From Escherichia phage Delraymugoa, in the sequence record OR896825.1: a stretch of DNA of 64,000 nt, one strand, 5' to 3'. This document shows, piece after piece, positions 2,777 to 54,370 of this stretch. The stretch's first letter is position 1, and each line of letters begins with the position of its first letter. The notes below the pieces were generated by a model, which was given only the letters and a program-made list of their open reading frames with translations, did no database searches and was not told the DNA's origin. The position numbers and the translations under genes are program-made.

Positions 2777-5683
2777 ATGGCAGATTTAAGCAGAATCCAA
2801 TTTAAACGTACTAGCACTAAAGGCCGTCGACCTGATGCTGGTACGATGAATCCGGGGGAATTGGCAATCAACCTTGCGGATCAATATCTTCTTACTAAAA
2901 ATGATTCCGGTGCTATTATCAATTTAAGTTGTCCTCCGGTTTATGACAGCGATGTTACAATGGCGGGTAAGGTTAAAGGAAATAATTATATTTTAAGTAA
3001 AACCGCTAATTATTTTGAAGACCAAACCGCGCGAGATCTTAATTATTTTGGTGCGTTTCGACCGAATAATGCTGATGGTTGGTCTAACTTGATTCTGAAC
3101 ATTCCTCATCCCAGCGGTAAAGCACACGGTCGCGGGTTTGAATTTGAATATGGTTCTAGTTCCTCTCAGGTTAAAACCTATGGCTTTGATAAGGATGGTA
3201 ACAAGAGATTCAGCTTTCGCATGTATCACGAAGGTGATAAACCTACCCCATCGGAATTGAACGTTTATAGCAAACAAGAAGTTGACCGCATGTTTGTTAA
3301 AAACGTTAAAATGTCAACTCCTGCTGATGTAAGTAGAGGATATTTCAAAATTGCTACCGCTATGATCCCACAGCAAGGAAGAATGGCATTTATTCGTATC
3401 TATGGTGGTAATGGATATAACGTAAACTATATGGATCAAGTTGACTTTGTAGAAATCGTGATTCGTGGTGGGAATGGAAATCCTAAAGGTGTTAGTATTG
3501 CCGCATATCGACGAAATGCTTTAAATCAGCTTGAAGTATTTGCTATTAATACATCTGGTGATAACTATGATATCTATGTAAAATATGGTCGATACACCGA
3601 TAACGTTATTGTAGAATTTGGAAAAACGGTCGATGTTAATTTAACGGTTCATGATGTTCCGGCTTTTTCGGAAGCAAAACCTGCTGGTACTACCTTTGAA
3701 GGTCGTATTATTACCATGTTCAACACCGAAAACAAAGCAGGAACGTTGATGTTTGATAATAACTCACAAGCAACCTATGATATTGTGAGTCTTAGCAATG
3801 CACCTGATAATAGCCGAAATTATCTGCGTAAATTCCGTAGCAAAGCGAATGAAACAATATGGCATGAAACTGTTCAAGGTGATGTGTATCGTTTGGCTAC
3901 TGGTTCCACCGACCAAAAAGAAGTATTAAAAATTGTTGGTAGTGATGGTTTATTTGTCAATAGACTTCATCTGCAAGGCAATAACGCGATTCGTATGTGG
4001 CGTCCTACTGGTTGTAGTAACTATTTTGAATATATGGATCAGCGAGACGGGGCTAATAAACGTCAAGGGTGGTTTGGTTTTGGTTCTATAGAAACCAACG
4101 ATTTTCAATGGTATAGTGACGAAGGTAAAAACTTTGTTAAGCTAGAAGCAAGTGGTCAAGTATCTTTAAGCGCAGGTGCAACCAAAATTGTATACACTAA
4201 TGGTCAATATGTAGCTGCCAATTCTGATGCATACCGTATGATCTTTGGTAATTATGGTGCATTCTGGCGTAATGACGGCATTAAAGTTTATCTTCTGTCT
4301 ACTGCCGAAAATGATAGATTTGGTGGCTGGAACGGCAACCGACCATTCATTTACGATTTAACAACTGGTAAAGTTACTTTAGGTGGCGACGGTAACGAAG
4401 GCGCATTAGTTCTCGAAAGAGATAGCCGTGCTGCCCGTTTTGTGGGTGACATTTATGTCGGTAACGGAATGTTAACCTTTGATGCCGGACGATTAAATTC
4501 TCGCGATTACTTCCGGTTTAATCATTGGGGTGATAGCAATAACGCGCGTGATAACATCTTACAGCTTGACGATAGCATGGGTGCACACTTCACCACTGAA
4601 CGTACTTTAGCAACTGGTGCGATTAAAACTAAATTCTTCGGTGATTTGGAATCTGCTGGTCAAATTAAATGGGGTAAAGGGACCGCCGCATCTACGTTTA
4701 CTCTACGTGTATGGGGTAACGATAGTCGTAAACAAATATTTGAATGCGGCGATGAAAGCGGGTGGCATTGGTATACCCAACGCGCGGGCGGTCCGGATAC
4801 TTCTGCAATTGAGTTTGCCATCAACGGTACTGTTAAGCCTCAAGCAATTCACACTGGCGGTAATATCACGCTTAACGGTGCTGATATTGAATTTAAACGA
4901 AGCGGTAACAAGCATTTATGGTTTAGAGATCCGAACGGCTTAGAGTTGGGTCTGTTGTACTGCGATGATGCTGGTGTTATGCGTATTCGTGGGGAGAAAT
5001 CGACCGAAGTATGGAAATTCTCAGCAAAACAGATTCATCTGGAAACTGGTACTGCCGGAAATGGTGTAGGCTTGCTTCGTGGTGCTGTAGGTGGTGGCGC
5101 ATGGACTCAATGGCGAGATCGTGGCACTGGCTTGCAGGTTGATTGTCAGCAATCTGAAAACTCAGCGCATAACGTATGGAGAGCTACGCATCAAGGAAAA
5201 TACCACATCGCGGCAATGGGTGTACACGTTCCTGGTGGTACTATCGGAAATGCTATGGTGCGTATTCATGTACACGATGCAACTTTTGACTTTAGCGCAA
5301 CTGGTGATTTCCAAGCAGGTCGTAACGGTAATTTTAACGATGTGTACATTCGTTCTGATGCTCGCCTGAAAATCAATAAGGAAGAGTATAAAGAGAATGC
5401 CACCGATAAAGTTAATCGCTTGACGGTATACACCTATGACAAGGTTAAATCTTTAACCGACCGTACTGTCATTGCTCATGAAGTTGGTATTATTGCTCAG
5501 GATCTTGAGAAAGAATTGCCAGAAGCAGTAACAACCTCGAAGATCGGCGACGGTGATACACCAGAAGAGATCTTAACAATTTCTAACTCTGCTGTCAACG
5601 CTCTTTTAATTAAGGCGTTTCAGGAAATGAGCGAAGAATTGAAAGCCGTTAAAGCTGAACTAGCGGAACTTAAAAAGAATTAA
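2777..5683 (+). CDS. 37: long tail fiber distal subunit gp37-like with C-terminal intramolecular chaperone (peptidase S74-type) domain
   Basis: N-terminus RIQFKR..RP..GELAINL..DSG.II matches gp37; C-terminus has SDARLKINKEEYKENATDKVNRL autocleavage-type motif plus coiled-coil tail. Confidence 0.85.
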   Translation: MADLSRIQFKRTSTKGRRPDAGTMNPGELAINLADQYLLTKNDSGAIINLSCPPVYDSDVTMAGKVKGNNYILSKTANYFEDQTARDLNYFGAFRPNNADGWSNLILNIPHPSGKAHGRGFEFEYGSSSSQVKTYGFDKDGNKRFSFRMYHEGDKPTPSELNVYSKQEVDRMFVKNVKMSTPADVSRGYFKIATAMIPQQGRMAFIRIYGGNGYNVNYMDQVDFVEIVIRGGNGNPKGVSIAAYRRNALNQLEVFAINTSGDNYDIYVKYGRYTDNVIVEFGKTVDVNLTVHDVPAFSEAKPAGTTFEGRIITMFNTENKAGTLMFDNNSQATYDIVSLSNAPDNSRNYLRKFRSKANETIWHETVQGDVYRLATGSTDQKEVLKIVGSDGLFVNRLHLQGNNAIRMWRPTGCSNYFEYMDQRDGANKRQGWFGFGSIETNDFQWYSDEGKNFVKLEASGQVSLSAGATKIVYTNGQYVAANSDAYRMIFGNYGAFWRNDGIKVYLLSTAENDRFGGWNGNRPFIYDLTTGKVTLGGDGNEGALVLERDSRAARFVGDIYVGNGMLTFDAGRLNSRDYFRFNHWGDSNNARDNILQLDDSMGAHFTTERTLATGAIKTKFFGDLESAGQIKWGKGTAASTFTLRVWGNDSRKQIFECGDESGWHWYTQRAGGPDTSAIEFAINGTVKPQAIHTGGNITLNGADIEFKRSGNKHLWFRDPNGLELGLLYCDDAGVMRIRGEKSTEVWKFSAKQIHLETGTAGNGVGLLRGAVGGGAWTQWRDRGTGLQVDCQQSENSAHNVWRATHQGKYHIAAMGVHVPGGTIGNAMVRIHVHDATFDFSATGDFQAGRNGNFNDVYIRSDARLKINKEEYKENATDKVNRLTVYTYDKVKSLTDRTVIAHEVGIIAQDLEKELPEAVTTSKIGDGDTPEEILTISNSAVNALLIKAFQEMSEELKAVKAELAELKKN

Positions 5684-7717: not shown

Positions 7718-8050
7718 TTACAGATGAAAACCTGTTACGATCACCGCATCGATCTTACCGCTAGGAATAAACGGTTCGCCCTCTTTTATTTCAACTTTGA
7801 ATTGATGCCATTTCGCTAATACTTCTTCCGGTACACCCAGCGATTCGGCGTCTGCTTTAGTTTCATCCATAATCCAACTAGGCTGCATGAGAGCATAGTT
7901 TACATAGTCCATTTCTGGGGTCATGTCATCAATGTTAATATATTTGCAGTTGACGCGTTTCAGAATTTCAAATTCTTTATTGTCAACCTGTACCATGTAT
8001 AATTCAGTAGTTTCTGGAATCAGTTCCCACACAATCAGTACATTTTTCAT
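7718..8050 (-). CDS. hypothetical protein (110 aa)
   Basis: ORF in array. Confidence 0.45.
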   Translation of the reverse strand: MKNVLIVWELIPETTELYMVQVDNKEFEILKRVNCKYINIDDMTPEMDYVNYALMQPSWIMDETKADAESLGVPEEVLAKWHQFKVEIKEGEPFIPSGKIDAVIVTGFHL

Positions 8051-8058
8051 AGTTCACC

Positions 8059-8427
8059 TCACTTAACAAAGATTTTCTTTAATGCTTTCAGGATCGTTGC
8101 TTCCGGCGCTTCTTCCGGTGGAGGAAGCAATTCTACCACTTCCTCTTCCAACTCGATATAGTCTACCAGATATTCTACATAGAATGCAAGTGCTTCCATG
8201 AAATTAGATGCTACATCCGATTCACCACAAGCGCCTACATGCATTGTATAAACATCACTGCGATCAAGTTTGTGGATGCTTCCCAGATAGTTTCGGTTAT
8301 ACCAGACTTCCCACACTTTCAGCTTTCCGGTTTTGGTTGCTGTTTTATAATCGGTTTCGTAATGATGCAATTGACGTTGCAGATCATTGATAATAACACA
8401 TTTTTCGTAATTATTTTGAATTTCCAT
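8059..8427 (-). CDS. hypothetical protein (122 aa)
   Basis: ORF in array. Confidence 0.45.
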   Translation of the reverse strand: MEIQNNYEKCVIINDLQRQLHHYETDYKTATKTGKLKVWEVWYNRNYLGSIHKLDRSDVYTMHVGACGESDVASNFMEALAFYVEYLVDYIELEEEVVELLPPPEEAPEATILKALKKIFVK

Positions 8428-8437
8428 GATGTAATCC

Positions 8438-8629
8438 TCACTTATCGTTAAGAAGTTCTAAAACTTTCTGTCGTACTTTGTCAATATTAGTTGATTCAAA
8501 AACTGTACGGTATCCCCAGCTTTGACCGTATGAGCGGTTGCAATCTCCATATCCCCATTGTTCAACCTGATAGTATTCAAGGAATGGGTGCTGCCGAACT
8601 ATGATACCATCGCGATTAAAAATTACCAT
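8438..8629 (-). CDS. hypothetical protein (63 aa)
   Basis: ORF preceded by GAGGATTATATTATG-type initiation context. Confidence 0.4.
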   Translation of the reverse strand: MVIFNRDGIIVRQHPFLEYYQVEQWGYGDCNRSYGQSWGYRTVFESTNIDKVRQKVLELLNDK

Positions 8630-8652
8630 AATATAATCCTCACGTCAACAAC

Positions 8653-8940
8653 TTATTTTCTGTTGTGGTCACGATATGTTTTAAAATATCCCTCGTACCA
8701 CGGTAAAATATCTGGATTTTTACCACTATACAGACCTTTAACCATCATGTCAATAAGGCCATCTGGTGTTTGATAGTTTCCAGCTTTTATAAGCTCTCTG
8801 ATTAAAATCTCTCTGTATATGTCTTTCGGATCTTCGTAATCAACTTGTATTGTGGTTGTGGTCTCATTCAATTTGGTTTCTGGATTATCTCGCATCGCAT
8901 CCCACCAATCTTTTGTGCTCTTCATGTTATTGAATTGCAT
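8653..8940 (-). CDS. hypothetical protein (95 aa)
   Basis: ORF in array. Confidence 0.45.
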   Translation of the reverse strand: MQFNNMKSTKDWWDAMRDNPETKLNETTTTIQVDYEDPKDIYREILIRELIKAGNYQTPDGLIDMMVKGLYSGKNPDILPWYEGYFKTYRDHNRK

Positions 8941-8951
8941 AATTTAACCTC

Positions 8952-9710
8952 TTACTTGCAAACGTATTGATCTACATCAATTGCGCCACCGAATGTAGGA
9001 TGACGTTTTTCAAATCTAATAGTTCCGTCGTTTGGTTCGAAAACGGAGTATTCATATAGATCTTTCTTGCCAACATTCTTATAAAACCCGCCTTTAGTCA
9101 TAACGGTTTCTTGTACGTTTGCTTTGTGTACGTTGTATTCGTCAATGTATACAAAATCAACCATCTTCCCATTTTTAATGGTTACTTTAAGATCTCCTGG
9201 TTGATTTCCATATTTGGCATACAGTGGCGCTTCTTTAATTTTTGTGGAAATTCCATCTTTCATACTCCACTCATAACGAACGGTGCATTGATAGGTAAAA
9301 GTTTCGACCTTCGGTTCTTCGACCACTTTTGCTTCCTGTTTCGGTTGTTCTTCTTCAACCTTCGCAGAAGTCTCTGAATCGCTTTCTGACGCGGTTTCTT
9401 CTTTAGGTAATACATTCATCAAGTTTTGGATTTGAGCGTTATATACAGCCTCCAGTGGCTGAATCTGCCCGATATTGATCATTGTATCACGAACAGTTTT
9501 ATTCCAGTTTCGTTGCTCTTGTTTCAGAGACGGATCAATCTTAACAGCCTTAACATACACCTCATGAAGTTTAGAGTCCAGTGCGGAGATAGACTCATTA
9601 GCACAAATAAACTTCTCTGATTTGGTAGTAGCTTTAGCGCAATCAAAGGACGCAGCGTTAGCACCGAAAGCAGTAGCAGAAAGAACGATAGCAGCGATAA
9701 TGTTTTTCAT
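8952..9710 (-). CDS. secreted protein with DUF1311/LprI-like (lysozyme-inhibitor-type) N-terminal domain (252 aa)
   Basis: Signal peptide MKNIIAAIVLSATAFGANA; then FDCAKA..E.FIC....L..LD..L..VY....QRNWNK..RD pattern; GAGGAA Shine-Dalgarno; own early promoter. Confidence 0.6.
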   Translation of the reverse strand: MKNIIAAIVLSATAFGANAASFDCAKATTKSEKFICANESISALDSKLHEVYVKAVKIDPSLKQEQRNWNKTVRDTMINIGQIQPLEAVYNAQIQNLMNVLPKEETASESDSETSAKVEEEQPKQEAKVVEEPKVETFTYQCTVRYEWSMKDGISTKIKEAPLYAKYGNQPGDLKVTIKNGKMVDFVYIDEYNVHKANVQETVMTKGGFYKNVGKKDLYEYSVFEPNDGTIRFEKRHPTFGGAIDVDQYVCK

Positions 9711-9744
9711 AATATATTCCTCACTGTTTTGTCTTGATGGGAGT

Positions 9745-9773
9745 ATCTTACTACTCCCTTAATCCGGTGTCAA
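9745..9773 (-). promoter_or_regulatory. sigma70-type early promoter with stem-loop (PeSL-like)
   Basis: Minus strand TTGACA-N17-TAAGAT; -10 lies in GGGAGTA..TACTCCC hairpin (9738-9757). Confidence 0.6.
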
Positions 9774-9784
9774 CTACTTTTAAA

Positions 9785-10084
9785 TTATTTTCGCCATTCA
9801 CCGGAAACAATAAAGTTTGTAAAGTGATCGTGGTCCATGATAACGTCATTAAGTACCATATGTGGATACACTTTAGTGATAATTTTACTAAGTACCATAT
9901 GCGGATATGCTTTAGTGTAATCACGTTTACGATCAGTCATCCAGCCAACGAAAGTTGGTGCAAAGTACGGTACACCGTCAGACGATGCCATATTAAACCC
10001 TTTATCAACCATAAATGCAGCCGCCCTAAGATTTTTAATTGAAGTAGTGCGACTAATTTCAAAAACTTTATCGGTAAAATTCAT
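9785..10084 (-). CDS. hypothetical protein (99 aa)
   Basis: Start moved to internal ATG (MNFTDKV) with GGGGG Shine-Dalgarno, which removes overlap with upstream gene. Confidence 0.45.
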   Translation of the reverse strand: MNFTDKVFEISRTTSIKNLRAAAFMVDKGFNMASSDGVPYFAPTFVGWMTDRKRDYTKAYPHMVLSKIITKVYPHMVLNDVIMDHDHFTNFIVSGEWRK

Positions 10085-10085
10085 T

Positions 10086-10295
10086 TTAAGCCCCCGCTCG
10101 TGCATTAATACGCATTTTCTGTATAGCCATGATCTGGTTTACTGCTTCTTCTTTACGTTCTTGCGTGATAATGTGACCAGATTCCGCAAACTCTCCAGCA
10201 ACTTCTTCTACGATCTCGCGAACTTGAGAACGTCCAAAGATGCGGTTTCCTTCGTAGCTCATAAACTCTGTTACTACTTGCTCGATAGATTTCAT
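10086..10295 (-). CDS. hypothetical protein (69 aa)
   Basis: ATG with GGAGAATCA leader directly downstream of promoter. Confidence 0.45.
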   Translation of the reverse strand: MKSIEQVVTEFMSYEGNRIFGRSQVREIVEEVAGEFAESGHIITQERKEEAVNQIMAIQKMRINARAGA

Positions 10296-10324
10296 GTGAT
10301 TCTCCTTTCGTTTGGTATGGGAGT

Positions 10325-10353
10325 ATGTTACTACTCCCTTATCTTTACGTCAA
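10325..10353 (-). promoter_or_regulatory. sigma70-type early promoter with stem-loop (PeSL-like)
   Basis: TTGACG-N17-TAACAT; GGGAGTA-GTAACA-TACTCCC hairpin over the -10. Confidence 0.6.
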
Positions 10354-10360
10354 CTAGTTT

Positions 10361-10603
10361 TTAGAAATTTTTCGCTTCTTCTTCGGTCATCATCACCGCG
10401 CATTCGTGCATAACTTTGAAAACCGGGTCAATCATATCGAATGCTTCGCTGGACAGTTTACGAGAAGCGATTTTGATTGCTTCAACGTCTTCTACTACAG
10501 GAACAAAAACAGTTTTCAGTTCGTCGAGCACGGCAGCTTCTTTTTCATTCAGGAAGATCCCAGCGTCGTACAGTGCAACTTCGATAACATTAACTTTAAC
10601 CAT
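10361..10603 (-). CDS. hypothetical protein (80 aa)
   Basis: Start set at internal ATG (MVKVNVIEV) with GGAGG Shine-Dalgarno downstream of promoter; track ORF began inside the upstream gene. Confidence 0.45.
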   Translation of the reverse strand: MVKVNVIEVALYDAGIFLNEKEAAVLDELKTVFVPVVEDVEAIKIASRKLSSEAFDMIDPVFKVMHECAVMMTEEEAKNF

Positions 10604-10637
10604 TTTTATTTCCTCCAGTTCGTTTCGGTATGGGAGT

Positions 10638-10666
10638 ATAATACTACCGATGACCTTTGGCGTCAA
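10638..10666 (-). promoter_or_regulatory. sigma70-type early promoter
   Basis: TTGACG-N17-TATTAT with A-rich upstream region. Confidence 0.55.
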
Positions 10667-10868
10667 CTGCTTTTTTATTATTTTCGTGAAAATTTTTCGT
10701 CGCCTCATGTGCTTTTCGCTGGGCTTCTTGTTGTGCTTGCTGGCGTGCTGCCTCTTGTGAAGCCATAACGGAAGCATTTGCAGCAGTTACAGCCGCTACC
10801 ATCGCTGCGGTATTAGCATTTACAGTACATGCACTAGCCAGCAAAGCAATTGCAATCATTTTCTTCAT
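10644..10868 (-). CDS. small secreted or lipoprotein-like protein (74 aa)
   Basis: Signal peptide MKKMIAIALLASAC; Ala/Gln-rich mature part; GGGGA Shine-Dalgarno; ATGA overlap with upstream gene. Confidence 0.5.
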   Translation of the reverse strand: MKKMIAIALLASACTVNANTAAMVAAVTAANASVMASQEAARQQAQQEAQRKAHEATKNFHENNKKAVDAKGHR

Positions 10869-11035
10869 AGTTTCCCCTTTAGGTTATCTTCGACCTTCAC
10901 CCATTCCGCGTATTCTTGCGCGGCTACTTTCGGATTTAGTCCGTCTTCGTACATTGCTTCAAGTAATTCTTCGTCGGTGGGCTTATACCCTAGATAAGCC
11001 TCCACCTGATTTTTCCAAATTTTATACCAGTTCAT
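10865..11035 (-). CDS. hypothetical protein (56 aa)
   Basis: Start moved to internal ATG (MNWYKIW) with GGTGA Shine-Dalgarno. Confidence 0.4.
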   Translation of the reverse strand: MNWYKIWKNQVEAYLGYKPTDEELLEAMYEDGLNPKVAAQEYAEWVKVEDNLKGKL

Positions 11036-53400: not shown

Positions 53401-53431
53401 AATATAATCCTCTCGTTGTTTAGACGGGAGT

Positions 53432-53460
53432 ATCTTACTACTCCCGTTTCATCATGTCAA
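53432..53460 (-). promoter_or_regulatory. sigma70-type early promoter with stem-loop (PeSL-like)
   Basis: TTGACA-N17-TAAGAT; CGGGAGTA-N6-TACTCCCG hairpin. Confidence 0.6.
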
Positions 53461-54310: not shown

Positions 54311-54341
54311 TGTTGATTCTCCTTCTTGATTAGATGGGAGT

Positions 54342-54370
54342 ATTTTACTACTCCCATTTCTTATTGTCAA
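54342..54370 (-). promoter_or_regulatory. sigma70-type early promoter with stem-loop (PeSL-like)
   Basis: TTGACA-N17-TAAAAT; GGGAGTA-N6-TACTCCC hairpin. Confidence 0.6.

Follow-up and report, generated by a model that had tools for sequence, protein, structure and literature searches.

A phage gene that joins a near-invariant DUF1311 module to C-terminal domains swapped at sharp breakpoints

RB49ORF260c, a gene of an RB49-like Krischvirus, encodes a protein whose residues 1 to ~125 are nearly invariant among aligned homologues, whereas its C-terminal domain comes in classes that are swapped at sharp breakpoints. This pattern is new; the DUF1311 domain call by itself is routine and already public, with the protein named so in UniProt and RefSeq. 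We analysed the gene within a 64,000-nucleotide stretch of Escherichia phage Delraymugoa (sequence record OR896825.1; hereafter the window), where it is the minus-strand ORF 8952..9710, with an ATG start and a product of 252 aa. A sequence-only reading had described a signal peptide, a DUF1311 domain, an acidic linker, a beta-rich C-domain and an early promoter, and had proposed inhibition of lysozyme; the domain layout and the early-type promoter stand, but the argument for lysozyme inhibition does not.

The gene lies between t and 52, its Krischvirus neighbours are small phage ORFs, and the holin gene and the hypervariable gene 37 are found ~2.3 kb and ~3.3 kb away, respectively. We regard it as a real gene because it is kept in 113 phage records and is under purifying selection; essentially all Krischviruses retain it. 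The features of the locus are as follows:

9739..9773, minus strand: PeSL element, an early sigma-70-like promoter with a stem-loop (promoter scan, motif count and fold)
9719..9722, minus strand: Shine-Dalgarno sequence GAGG, 8 nt 5' of the ATG (read from the sequence)
9654..9710, minus strand: predicted signal peptide, residues 1-19, MKNIIAAIVLSATAFGANA, cleaved before A20 (hydrophobicity and AXA rule)
9408..9653, minus strand: DUF1311/LprI-N helical domain, residues 20-101, with the invariant Cys24 and Cys36; the constant module
9303..9407, minus strand: acidic, flexible linker rich in Pro, Glu and Lys, residues 102-136 (composition and low pLDDT)
8955..9302, minus strand: variable C-terminal module, residues 137-252, predicted to be a beta-barrel and here of class A; its first and last strands hold Cys142 and Cys251, respectively
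8952..8954, minus strand: stop codon, the right edge of the swapped segment in class B and class D prophage alleles
8885..8944, minus strand: right homology arm, made up of intergenic bases and the first ~19 codons of the downstream gene
8653..8940, minus strand: RB49ORF259c, 95 aa, without a signal peptide and with no Pfam match

The signal peptide was called by rule, and the result agrees with the earlier description: no 13-mer of the protein is more hydrophobic than residues 4-16 (mean Kyte-Doolittle 2.28), and A-N-A comes after them, ahead of A20. A hydrophobicity scan of the protein found no second hydrophobic stretch, and there is no lipobox—the cleavage region reads FGANA/ASFDC, which puts the first Cys at mature position +5. 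The signal is predicted to be of the signal peptidase I type and the protein to be soluble rather than a lipoprotein, with the periplasm as its likely location; the signal peptide is nearly invariant across all homologues in the alignment. Four invariant cysteines, arranged in two pairs, are consistent with oxidative folding in the periplasm, and they may well form disulfides.

The constant module carries the Cys-bracketed motif on which the LprI-like assignment had been built (SFDCAKATTKSEKFICANESISALDSKLHEVYVKAVKIDPSLKQEQRNWNKTVRD), and a domain search bears the assignment out: PF07007 matches residues 24-76 (E = 1.4e-5), and the score of 25.8 bits exceeds the cut-off of 22. The same family is matched by 15/15 variants and by the Marfa and CC2 homologues. 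Like PDB 3gi7, the N-domain is a short bundle of helices with two conserved, paired cysteines, and its dN/dS is only 0.00-0.07. The linker that follows is as acidic as had been proposed, with 12 D/E in 35 residues and a pI of 4.4, and residues 104-132 are disordered in the AlphaFold2 model (pLDDT <50). The protein as a whole has no sequence match in the PDB, and the PADLOC anti-phage defence models match it at noise level only.

Directly upstream of the gene we predict a PeSL-type promoter, which accounts for the early promoter of the sequence-only reading. Its -35 box (TTGACA, 9773-9768) and -10 box (TAAGAT, 9750-9745, minus strand) are separated by a 17-nt spacer, and a stem-loop, GGGAGTA-N6-TACTCCC (9758-9739), overlaps the -10 box, as in the PeSL class of RB49 and phi1 (PMC2839356); the hairpin is present in the minimum-free-energy fold. 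Its parts are those described for PeSLs: besides the sigma-70-like promoter and the stem-loop there are AT-rich bases upstream, a Shine-Dalgarno sequence and a position in a hyperplastic region (PMC2839356). A generic promoter scan of the window gave a count not above that of shuffles; only the composite PeSL motif was significant, with four copies in the window and none in 100 shuffles. The element forms part of a conserved left arm, since identity to the phi1 and JSE alleles begins at 9786. The PeSL-flanked ORFan cassettes of RB49 and phi1 lie in the same hyperplastic region and have the same promoter-plus-stem-loop upstream (Arbiol et al. 2010, PMC2839356); however, the published PeSL shuffling moves whole ORFs between PeSLs (PMC2839356), whereas here the 3' half of a gene is exchanged, alone or together with the next gene, at breakpoints inside the coding sequence.

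The beta-rich character of the C-domain is reproduced by the AlphaFold2 model, in which residues 135-251 form 8-9 strands with a pLDDT of ~88; a model of class E, of modest confidence, is also eight-stranded. Past residue ~125 the alignment across classes leaves only C142, G153 and C251 invariant, the two cysteines being kept in all five classes and placed by prediction in the first and last strands. A Cys142-Cys251 disulfide probably clamps the first strand to the last, as does the corresponding bond in ACP, PliC, MliC and PhiA, and in the models the module, predicted to be a small barrel of about eight strands, resembles these proteins in shape. They are periplasmic inhibitors of lysozymes and peptidoglycan hydrolases; ACP inhibits lysozyme with this fold in the absence of any MliC motif, and in vitro PhiA failed to inhibit the target proposed for it.

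The likeness of shape is not accompanied by likeness of sequence. The MliC family PF09864 gave no Pfam match at E <= 10 in any of 15 variants, and profile-HMM searches of the PDB with the C-domain retrieved neither MliC nor PliC. Alignment by hhalign to an MliC alignment, for which the E. coli MliC sequence was checked against 2F09, led us to reject the C-domain as an MliC homologue (4.3% probability with classes A-D, 2.5% with class E). Two motifs by which lysozyme is bound, SxSGAxY (loop 4) and YxxxTKG (strand 6), are absent from the C-domain, as they are from ACP and PhiA; all that class A offers is K-G-G-F-Y, located in the loop that joins strands 194-204 and 210-216, and this is not kept in the other classes. 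A phmmer search of 1.84 billion representatives found no C-domain homologues outside the family, the extra matches being two spurious repeat proteins. A common origin of class E and classes A-D found no support in hhalign (probability 2.4%, with the first 21 residues alone aligned); as this comparison fails and the class E model is of modest confidence, homology among the C-domain classes is unproven.

At least five deeply diverged C-domain classes can be distinguished, with variability spread over strands and loops alike and C-termini that read ...VCK, ...CEYKKG, ...MVDAE or ...CEEVK. Within classes the C-domain dN/dS is 0.19-0.34, and between classes dS is saturated. Class A within Krischvirus is strictly conserved (dN = 0 at dS 0.12), which argues for old alleles that are shuffled and against ongoing rapid diversification. 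The left breakpoints fall inside the linker, at 9303-9340; nucleotide identity to the other alleles ends at 9309 for phi1, at 9303 for JSE and the class B prophages, at 9332 for class D and at 9340 for class E. On the other side, class B and class D prophages keep the right arm as a truncated remnant of 82-92% identity that encodes MKFNSMKITKDWWDAMKANHQNDIN and then a stop. This cassette-like polymorphism, the most distinctive feature of the gene, had been overlooked by the sequence-only reading.

The prophage alleles belong to a chromosomal gene found in 26 of 5426 complete E. coli genomes, where prophage genes and hicAB surround it; each of the four loci examined places it at the prophage edge, adjoining a truncated hicB, and it stands alone, equipped with its own promoter-like and terminator-like sites. 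A survey of one genome per bacterial species returned no close relatives. Class E is common to JSE and prophage E275, and class B', in Krischvirus locus L016, is related to class B in prophages H2 and L018 (the C-domains of H2 and L016 are 57% identical). To judge from these comparisons, C-domain classes are exchanged among Krischviruses and one E. coli prophage lineage. GC content was considered as a pointer to the direction of transfer and is uninformative, the prophage being also ~40% GC.

Tentatively, and with somewhat less than an even chance of being right, we read the RB49ORF260c protein as a modular periplasmic binder for exclusion or immunity. A soluble periplasmic protein would be made early from the PeSL promoter and would carry two modules on a flexible acidic tether. 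The N-module would either dock onto a constant partner, such as part of the host envelope or a conserved enzyme, or drive self-assembly. The barrel cassettes would be exchanged by homologous recombination, with the promoter, N-module and linker as the left arm and the start of the next gene as the right arm; exchange would take place among virulent Krischviruses and with one E. coli prophage lineage, in which the gene stands alone at the prophage edge. The protein would bind and neutralise another protein that is active in the periplasm of an infected or lysogenic host. The most plausible target is a cell-wall hydrolase or other entry protein of a competing phage, and the choice of competitor would depend on the barrel class.

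Several observations bear on this binder reading. The C-domain class is coupled neither to the phage's own gp37 tip (class A tips are 46-97% identical to that of the window, and classes C and E are interspersed among them at 61-81%) nor to the holin, which is 98-100% identical across classes; both couplings were tried and rejected, and we argue from this for an external rather than an internal target. Prophage edges are typical positions of lysogenic-conversion and exclusion genes, so the location of the chromosomal copy counts for exclusion or immunity. The modelled likeness to the inhibitor barrels, with cysteines in the first and last strands, also counts in favour, as do the contrast between constant and variable modules with its sharp boundaries, the DUF1311 proteins reported or proposed as periplasmic immunity, and a syntenic RB49 site at which no spackle gene is annotated. 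The missing sequence or profile signal of MliC/PliC, the noise-level PADLOC match, the strict conservation of class A and the failure of PhiA to inhibit in vitro count against.

The characterised DUF1311 proteins offer several points of comparison, although no function has been reported in the literature for any phage member. The proposal of lysozyme inhibition had been taken from the family name; LprI, however, carries a second domain, MliC, and it is this part that was shown to suffice for lysozyme resistance, whereas experimental evidence of lysozyme inhibition by PF07007 itself is stated to be lacking (PMC7933661). Mycobacterium tuberculosis LprI (Rv1541c) is secreted and has PF07007 at its N-terminus with a small barrel of about eight strands behind it, a layout that the phage protein shares by prediction; however, LprI is a lipoprotein with an MliC barrel, whereas the phage protein lacks a lipobox and differs further in its long acidic linker and in a polymorphic barrel that does not match MliC. 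Salmonella ScwA is a DUF1311-only, soluble periplasmic protein and a DsbA substrate that raises MltD levels and causes lysis when overproduced; a scwA deletion mutant is no more lysozyme-sensitive than the wild type (PMC7933661). It shares with the phage protein the PF07007 domain and, as far as can be predicted for the latter, a soluble periplasmic state and disulfide-dependent cysteines, but its DUF1311 is at the C-terminus of an all-helical protein of 275 aa, and it is chromosomal, not polymorphic and without a barrel.

Stand-alone DUF1311 proteins have also been reported or proposed as immunity to cell-wall-targeting T6SS effectors: EHEC Etsi4 neutralises Etse4, a periplasmic effector described as targeting the cell wall; Pantoea LprI-domain proteins adjoin lysozyme-like T6SS effectors and are retained as orphan immunity genes; and the neighbours of WHIX effectors include DUF1311 proteins. 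Like the phage protein these have a signal peptide, and they are proposed neutralisers of hydrolases that act in the periplasm; the papers characterise them by the LprI/DUF1311 domain only. Their genes adjoin effectors or sit in immunity islands, whereas no effector gene adjoins an RB49ORF260c homologue in any phage or prophage context examined. A different comparison is with T4 Spackle (Sp, gp61.3), which is likewise phage-encoded and, as predicted for the present protein, early and periplasmic, an exclusion role being proposed for both proteins; Spackle, however, is a single small helical domain of ~93-97 aa, encoded at 41-61 rather than t-52.

The Spackle analogy is a reasonable hypothesis, and in its strict form it would have the DUF1311 domain or the barrel block the muramidase site of the gp5-type tail-tip lysozyme of superinfecting T-even phages. 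The naming of the family after LprI, a two-domain layout that mirrors the DUF1311 domain and MliC barrel of LprI, and the rescue of cells from Etse4 by Etsi4 all speak for it, as does the 41-61 locus of RB49: no spackle gene is annotated at this syntenic site, Dc1 and Dc2 there lack signal peptides, and a tblastn search with the distant Marfa Sp gave no match at E <0.17 in the window or in RB49 8-30 kb. We still consider such an inhibitor improbable, given the PF07007 and scwA results above and a C-domain that has neither MliC motifs nor profile similarity; gp5-type lysozymes are conserved, moreover, and would not explain five deeply diverged barrel classes, and in the Klebsiella phage Marfa a DUF1311 homologue occurs alongside a spackle gene, so that one does not simply stand in for the other. 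To a ScwA-like modulator we would assign a similarly low probability: here the protein would bind or stabilise a host periplasmic peptidoglycan enzyme, such as a lytic transglycosylase, and remodel the envelope in favour of infection, DNA entry, lysis timing or lysogen fitness. An invariant N-module suits a conserved host target, and the effects of ScwA on MltD and lysis, together with the nearby holin gene, fit this picture; a conserved host target, however, leaves the polymorphic C-domain unexplained, the uniformity of the holin across classes shows no co-variation with the lysis machinery, and ScwA is built differently.

Polymorphic C-domains would be expected if they matched polymorphic effectors, and the gene might then be an orphan immunity gene against T6SS or bacteriocin peptidoglycan hydrolases, a prophage fitness gene that is incidental in virulent phages. 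The Pantoea, Etsi4 and WHIX precedents and the prophage-edge location, which suits a host-fitness gene, are in its favour, but those precedents are described by their LprI/DUF1311 domain only, no effector gene is adjacent in any context examined, and the benefit to a short-cycle virulent phage is unclear, yet essentially all Krischviruses carry the gene under an early promoter; we think this explanation somewhat less likely again. Receptor masking or self-protection matched to the phage's own adhesin, in the manner of T5 Llp or Cor, would make use of an early, polymorphic and (by prediction) periplasmic protein encoded close to the hypervariable gene 37. It is hard to reconcile with classes that are uncoupled from the gp37 tip and recur in prophages with unrelated tails, or with a protein that by the rules applied is soluble rather than a lipoprotein, and we hold it to be very improbable. 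Equally improbable is a C-domain that forms a small outer-membrane beta-barrel, anchoring DUF1311 and varying in its surface-exposed loops: the domain has only ~115 residues, half of its strands are 4-8 residues long, and variability is not confined to loops. Outer-membrane barrels typically end in an aromatic C-terminal residue, whereas no class does so, and a cysteine pair linking first to last strand is typical of the soluble MliC/ACP fold.

The locus could be of wider interest for its architecture, in which a near-invariant and probably periplasmic module carries interchangeable barrels without sequence relatives, and these barrels pass between virulent T4-type phages and prophages that share a host. 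A constant scaffold with swapped barrels is the pattern to be expected where an interaction determines specificity in conflicts of phage with phage or of phage with bacterium, and with one gene and five natural alleles the system is easy to test. If the barrels inhibit virion-associated or secreted cell-wall hydrolases, the gene would supply RB49-like phages with a functional equivalent of Spackle, phages would be added to the range of the MliC/PliC/ACP inhibitor fold, and the locus would illustrate clearly how lytic and temperate phages exchange fragments of genes. At its most speculative, the proposal is that coliphages share a recombining library of periplasmic "specificity barrels" on a constant DUF1311 scaffold—a system of polymorphic exclusion or immunity that would mirror polymorphic toxins. 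When lysogens are infected, virulent T4-type phages would trade cassettes with the resident prophages, and the classes would differ in which incoming cell-wall hydrolase or entry protein they neutralise; the barrels would then define a new family that inhibits peptidoglycan hydrolases, sharing the MliC/ACP fold but unrelated to it in sequence, and would replace Spackle functionally in RB49-like phages. Taken in full, we judge this extended version unlikely.

A smaller observation concerns the downstream gene. RB49ORF259c is 49-52% identical between class A phages and phi1/JSE, whereas the flanking genes are 97-100% identical. Strict pairing with the C-domain class was considered and rejected, as the allele groups (A with B', and C with E) are not one-to-one with the classes and the prophages retain only a stub; RB49ORF259c diverges along with the cassette and is loosely linked to its class.

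The RB49ORF260c homologue occupies 8952..9710 as exactly one ORF, with an ATG start and a product of 252 aa, in a stretch (window 8000-11000) sharing 96-98% identity with RB49-like T4-type coliphages (genus Krischvirus; e.g. kaaroe, FL37, RB49). The genes t (holin) and 52 (topoisomerase) bound the hyperplastic region in which it is sited, as one of a series of small leftward ORFs. What the sequence-only reading had observed here is confirmed, with the gene on the minus strand, and its interpretation holds in part: it was right about the domain, the location signals, and the promoter. The cysteine motif SFDCAKA...FIC...QRNWNK..RD can be read in the ORF; the signal peptide comprises, by sequence rules, an N-terminal hydrophobic core followed by A-N-A, without a lipobox; the acidic linker is 35 residues long; and the C-domain, described as beta-rich, is all-beta in the AlphaFold2 model. 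A domain search placed DUF1311/LprI (Pfam PF07007) at residues 24-76, with 25.8 bits against a curated threshold of 22 and E = 1.4e-5, and the match was reproduced in all 15 homologues tested. The features of the gene and its modelled product are as follows:

9773..9745, minus strand: putative promoter TTGACA-17-TAAGAT, upstream of the 252-aa ORF
around the -10 box, minus strand: hairpin GGGAGTA-N6-TACTCCC, seen in the predicted fold
8 nt before the ATG, minus strand: Shine-Dalgarno-type GAGG, from sequence
residues 30-98: helices (AlphaFold2)
residues 104-132: disorder (AlphaFold2)
residues 135-251: 8-9 strands, pLDDT ~88 (AlphaFold2)

The claim that the gene has its own early promoter is well supported, because the composite motif of the promoter-early stem-loop (PeSL) is enriched over shuffles (4 in the window vs 0 in 100 shuffles) and the copy at this ORF corresponds to the published PeSL elements of RB49 and phi1 (PMC2839356); motif and precedent make this copy a putative promoter. 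Promoter and terminator activities have been demonstrated for other PeSL copies (PMC2839356). A generic promoter scan of the region was no richer than the region's own shuffles. Three more copies of the same subtype, TTGACA-N9-GGGAGTA-N6-TACTCCC, lie at 10319-10353, 53426-53460, and 54336-54370, all on the minus strand; they hold the -10 box in the hairpin loop, have 0 matches in 100 shuffles, and mark the sites of further early ORFan cassettes.

The protein combines a constant module with a cassette that can be exchanged. Aligning 15 homologues shows near-invariance up to residue ~125, and thereafter only C142, G153, and C251 are invariant; the C-domains fall into at least five classes:

class A: RB49 and the window
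class B and B': prophages and one Krischvirus contig
class C: phi1
class D: prophages
class E: JSE and prophages

Classes A-D are recognisably related (27-41% identity), whereas class E has no detectable relation to them beyond the first 21 residues; its model is also predicted to be eight-stranded. Between the PeSL (9786) and codon 134-136 (9309/9303), the window's DNA matches that of phi1 and JSE at 96-97.5% identity; no nucleotide similarity to either is detectable across the C-domain; similarity to other alleles resumes at the stop codon or inside the next gene. Values of dN/dS are 0.00-0.07 in the N-module (at dS 0.05-0.25) and 0.19-0.34 in the C-domain within classes, with dS saturated between classes. 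Judged by these comparisons, the polymorphism is one of old alleles shuffled onto a strongly constrained scaffold, not of one fast-evolving sequence. Two distant T4-type phages, Klebsiella phage Marfa (L006:2501-3259) and Aeromonas phage CC2 (L007:2474-3193), carry DUF1311 homologues with the same order of signal peptide, DUF1311 domain, linker, and Cys-pair C-domain, and the plan is therefore wider than Krischvirus; their C-domains show no sequence relation to the Krischvirus barrel and no obvious richness in beta structure.

The cassette is also shared with temperate phages. A chromosomal copy is present in 26/5426 complete E. coli genomes, with the first 371-408 nt 94-96% identical to the phage gene before divergence sets in; a search of one genome per bacterial species returned no close relatives. 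By match length the 26 copies form three groups (8, 12, and 6), whose class calls rest on sampled members—class B (prophage copy H2), class D (two loci), and class E (prophage copy E275). In all four E. coli loci examined, the copy is the last gene of a hicB-inserted prophage, with its own predicted promoter-like and terminator-like sites, and IMG/VR prophage contigs of ~35 kb have the same arrangement. Right after the stop codon, class B and D prophages keep 60-72 bp of the gene that follows in Krischvirus, as a stub (82-92% identical, encoding MKFNSMKITKDWWDAM...), so that virulent and temperate phages alike have homology on either side of the cassette; a Krischvirus infecting a lysogen would thus have a simple route of exchange. 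Identity between JSE and the E275 prophage is 85% at the nucleotide level and extends into the class E barrel. We found no earlier description of the cassette polymorphism or of its lytic/temperate sharing in the literature searched; shared in this way by coliphages, it offers a tractable experimental target.

Several observations concern the prophages themselves. Insertion of one lineage into hicB (L002:1-13000, L003, L023, L024) has left the antitoxin gene truncated, with hicA intact next to it. This lineage has ~40% GC vs ~49% in the flanking chromosome, and three different barrel classes occur in it at one edge position; the stub at L002:12774-12851, 3' of the gene homologue, spans 25 codons.

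Public records already carry the domain annotation: RB49ORF260c appears in Nolan et al. 2006 with a weak DUF1311 match (E = 0.2; PMC1524935), UniProt gives the RB49 protein an LprI/DUF1311-type name, and the E. coli copies are named "lysozyme inhibitor LprI family protein" in RefSeq; the PHROGs family, phrog_14799, is annotated as function unknown. The family name does not by itself imply lysozyme inhibition. In M. tuberculosis LprI, the part experimentally sufficient for resistance to lysozyme is the second domain, MliC, and PF07007 as a lysozyme inhibitor has no experimental evidence (PMC7933661). The lysozyme-inhibitor function suggested earlier follows weakly from the name and gains some independent help at the level of fold. 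MliC, PliC, ACP, and PhiA form one structural class, an eight-stranded barrel with a first-to-last-strand disulfide, and ACP inhibits lysozyme without sequence or motifs in common with MliC (PMC5507604, PMC8334348). The phage C-domain would resemble these in its roughly eight strands and its predicted disulfide: Cys142 and Cys251, invariant in every class, lie in the first and last predicted strands. Its sequence stands alone, with no relatives outside its own family among 1.84 billion representative proteins (two extra matches are repetitive proteins). Pfam MliC matched no variant tested, PDB profile searches retrieved neither MliC nor PliC, the SxSGAxY and YxxxTKG motifs are absent, and hhalign against homologues collected with E. 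coli MliC (sequence verified against 2F09) gave probabilities of 4.3% for classes A-D and 2.5% for class E. An outer-membrane barrel is unlikely given the size, short strands, non-aromatic C-termini, and Cys clamp.

We propose that an early, soluble protein, periplasmic by prediction, would dock to something invariant or assemble through its constant DUF1311 module, while the tethered barrel would confer specificity for a variable partner. A periplasmic target that is external and variable is suggested by predicted early expression, by the gene's stand-alone place at the prophage edge, by a polymorphism that is old and kept up through recombination, and by its independence of the phage's adhesin and holin; the protein would keep competitors out or confer immunity to proteins that act on the envelope, a reading we advance tentatively. 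Its leading candidate target is a cell-wall hydrolase, because the predicted barrel resembles peptidoglycan-hydrolase inhibitors and the family has links to cell-wall effectors. One main rival is orphan T6SS immunity: a periplasmic immunity function against cell-wall-targeting T6SS effectors is reported or proposed for DUF1311 proteins, Etsi4 (DUF1311) rescues Etse4 toxicity, and Pantoea and WHIX gene contexts also point to immunity to cell-wall effectors. The other is modulation of host peptidoglycan enzymes as by ScwA, a periplasmic DUF1311 protein whose deletion mutant is no more lysozyme-sensitive than wild type and which instead increases the amount of MltD, a lytic transglycosylase (PMC7933661).

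The narrower version of an external target, Spackle-like inhibition of gp5 lysozyme, we consider improbable. In its favour, no sp is annotated between genes 41 and 61 of RB49, where ORFs lack signal peptides or are unrelated; against it, Marfa carries both sp and a DUF1311 gene. The search for Spackle covered this RB49 locus and the window with a distant query. In the literature searched, no paper tied LprI/DUF1311 to phage superinfection exclusion. In the RB49 interval (L019:3000-4700), the position of T4 sp (61.3) is taken by Dc1, Dc2, 61.1, and two tiny ORFs, with a spackle-like gene neither annotated nor detected; ORF018c there is a 47-aa double-hydrophobic membrane peptide.

Three couplings within the phage were rejected. 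A Llp/Cor-like match to its own adhesin fails, because the gp37 tips of class A phages span 46-97% identity to the window's tip and class C and E phages fall among them; control of lysis via the holin fails likewise, the holin being 98-100% identical across classes. The downstream 95-aa gene RB49ORF259c (8653-8940, minus strand; no Pfam match) is 49-52% identical between allele groups vs 97-100% for neighbours; its two deeply split groups, A~B' and C~E, do not track barrel classes, and prophages retain the stub alone, which argues against an obligate partner. Its divergence alongside the cassette looks like hitch-hiking rather than partnership.

Gene 37 itself (2777-5683, plus strand) has a hypervariable C-terminal 350 aa of the distal tail fibre (46-97% identity) among otherwise near-identical Krischviruses, and the tip of one class A phage, G37-3, is as distant as those of top-scoring Tequatrovirus records. 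Upstream of the DUF1311 gene, a 106-aa ORF (9785-10105, minus strand) contains an internal direct repeat (...KAYPHMVLSKIITKVYPHMVLNDV...), not called by Tandem Repeats Finder; a repeat_region is annotated at the site in the kaaroe record, and RB49, phi1, and JSE have only a 51-aa ORF in its place. Further on, the N-terminus of a 74-aa ORF (10644-10868, minus strand) resembles a signal peptide or lipobox (MKKMIAIALLASAC...), and a helical stretch rich in Gln and Ala comes next; the ORF may encode a further small secreted protein or lipoprotein of the hyperplastic region; kaaroe has a hypothetical CDS annotated at the equivalent place.
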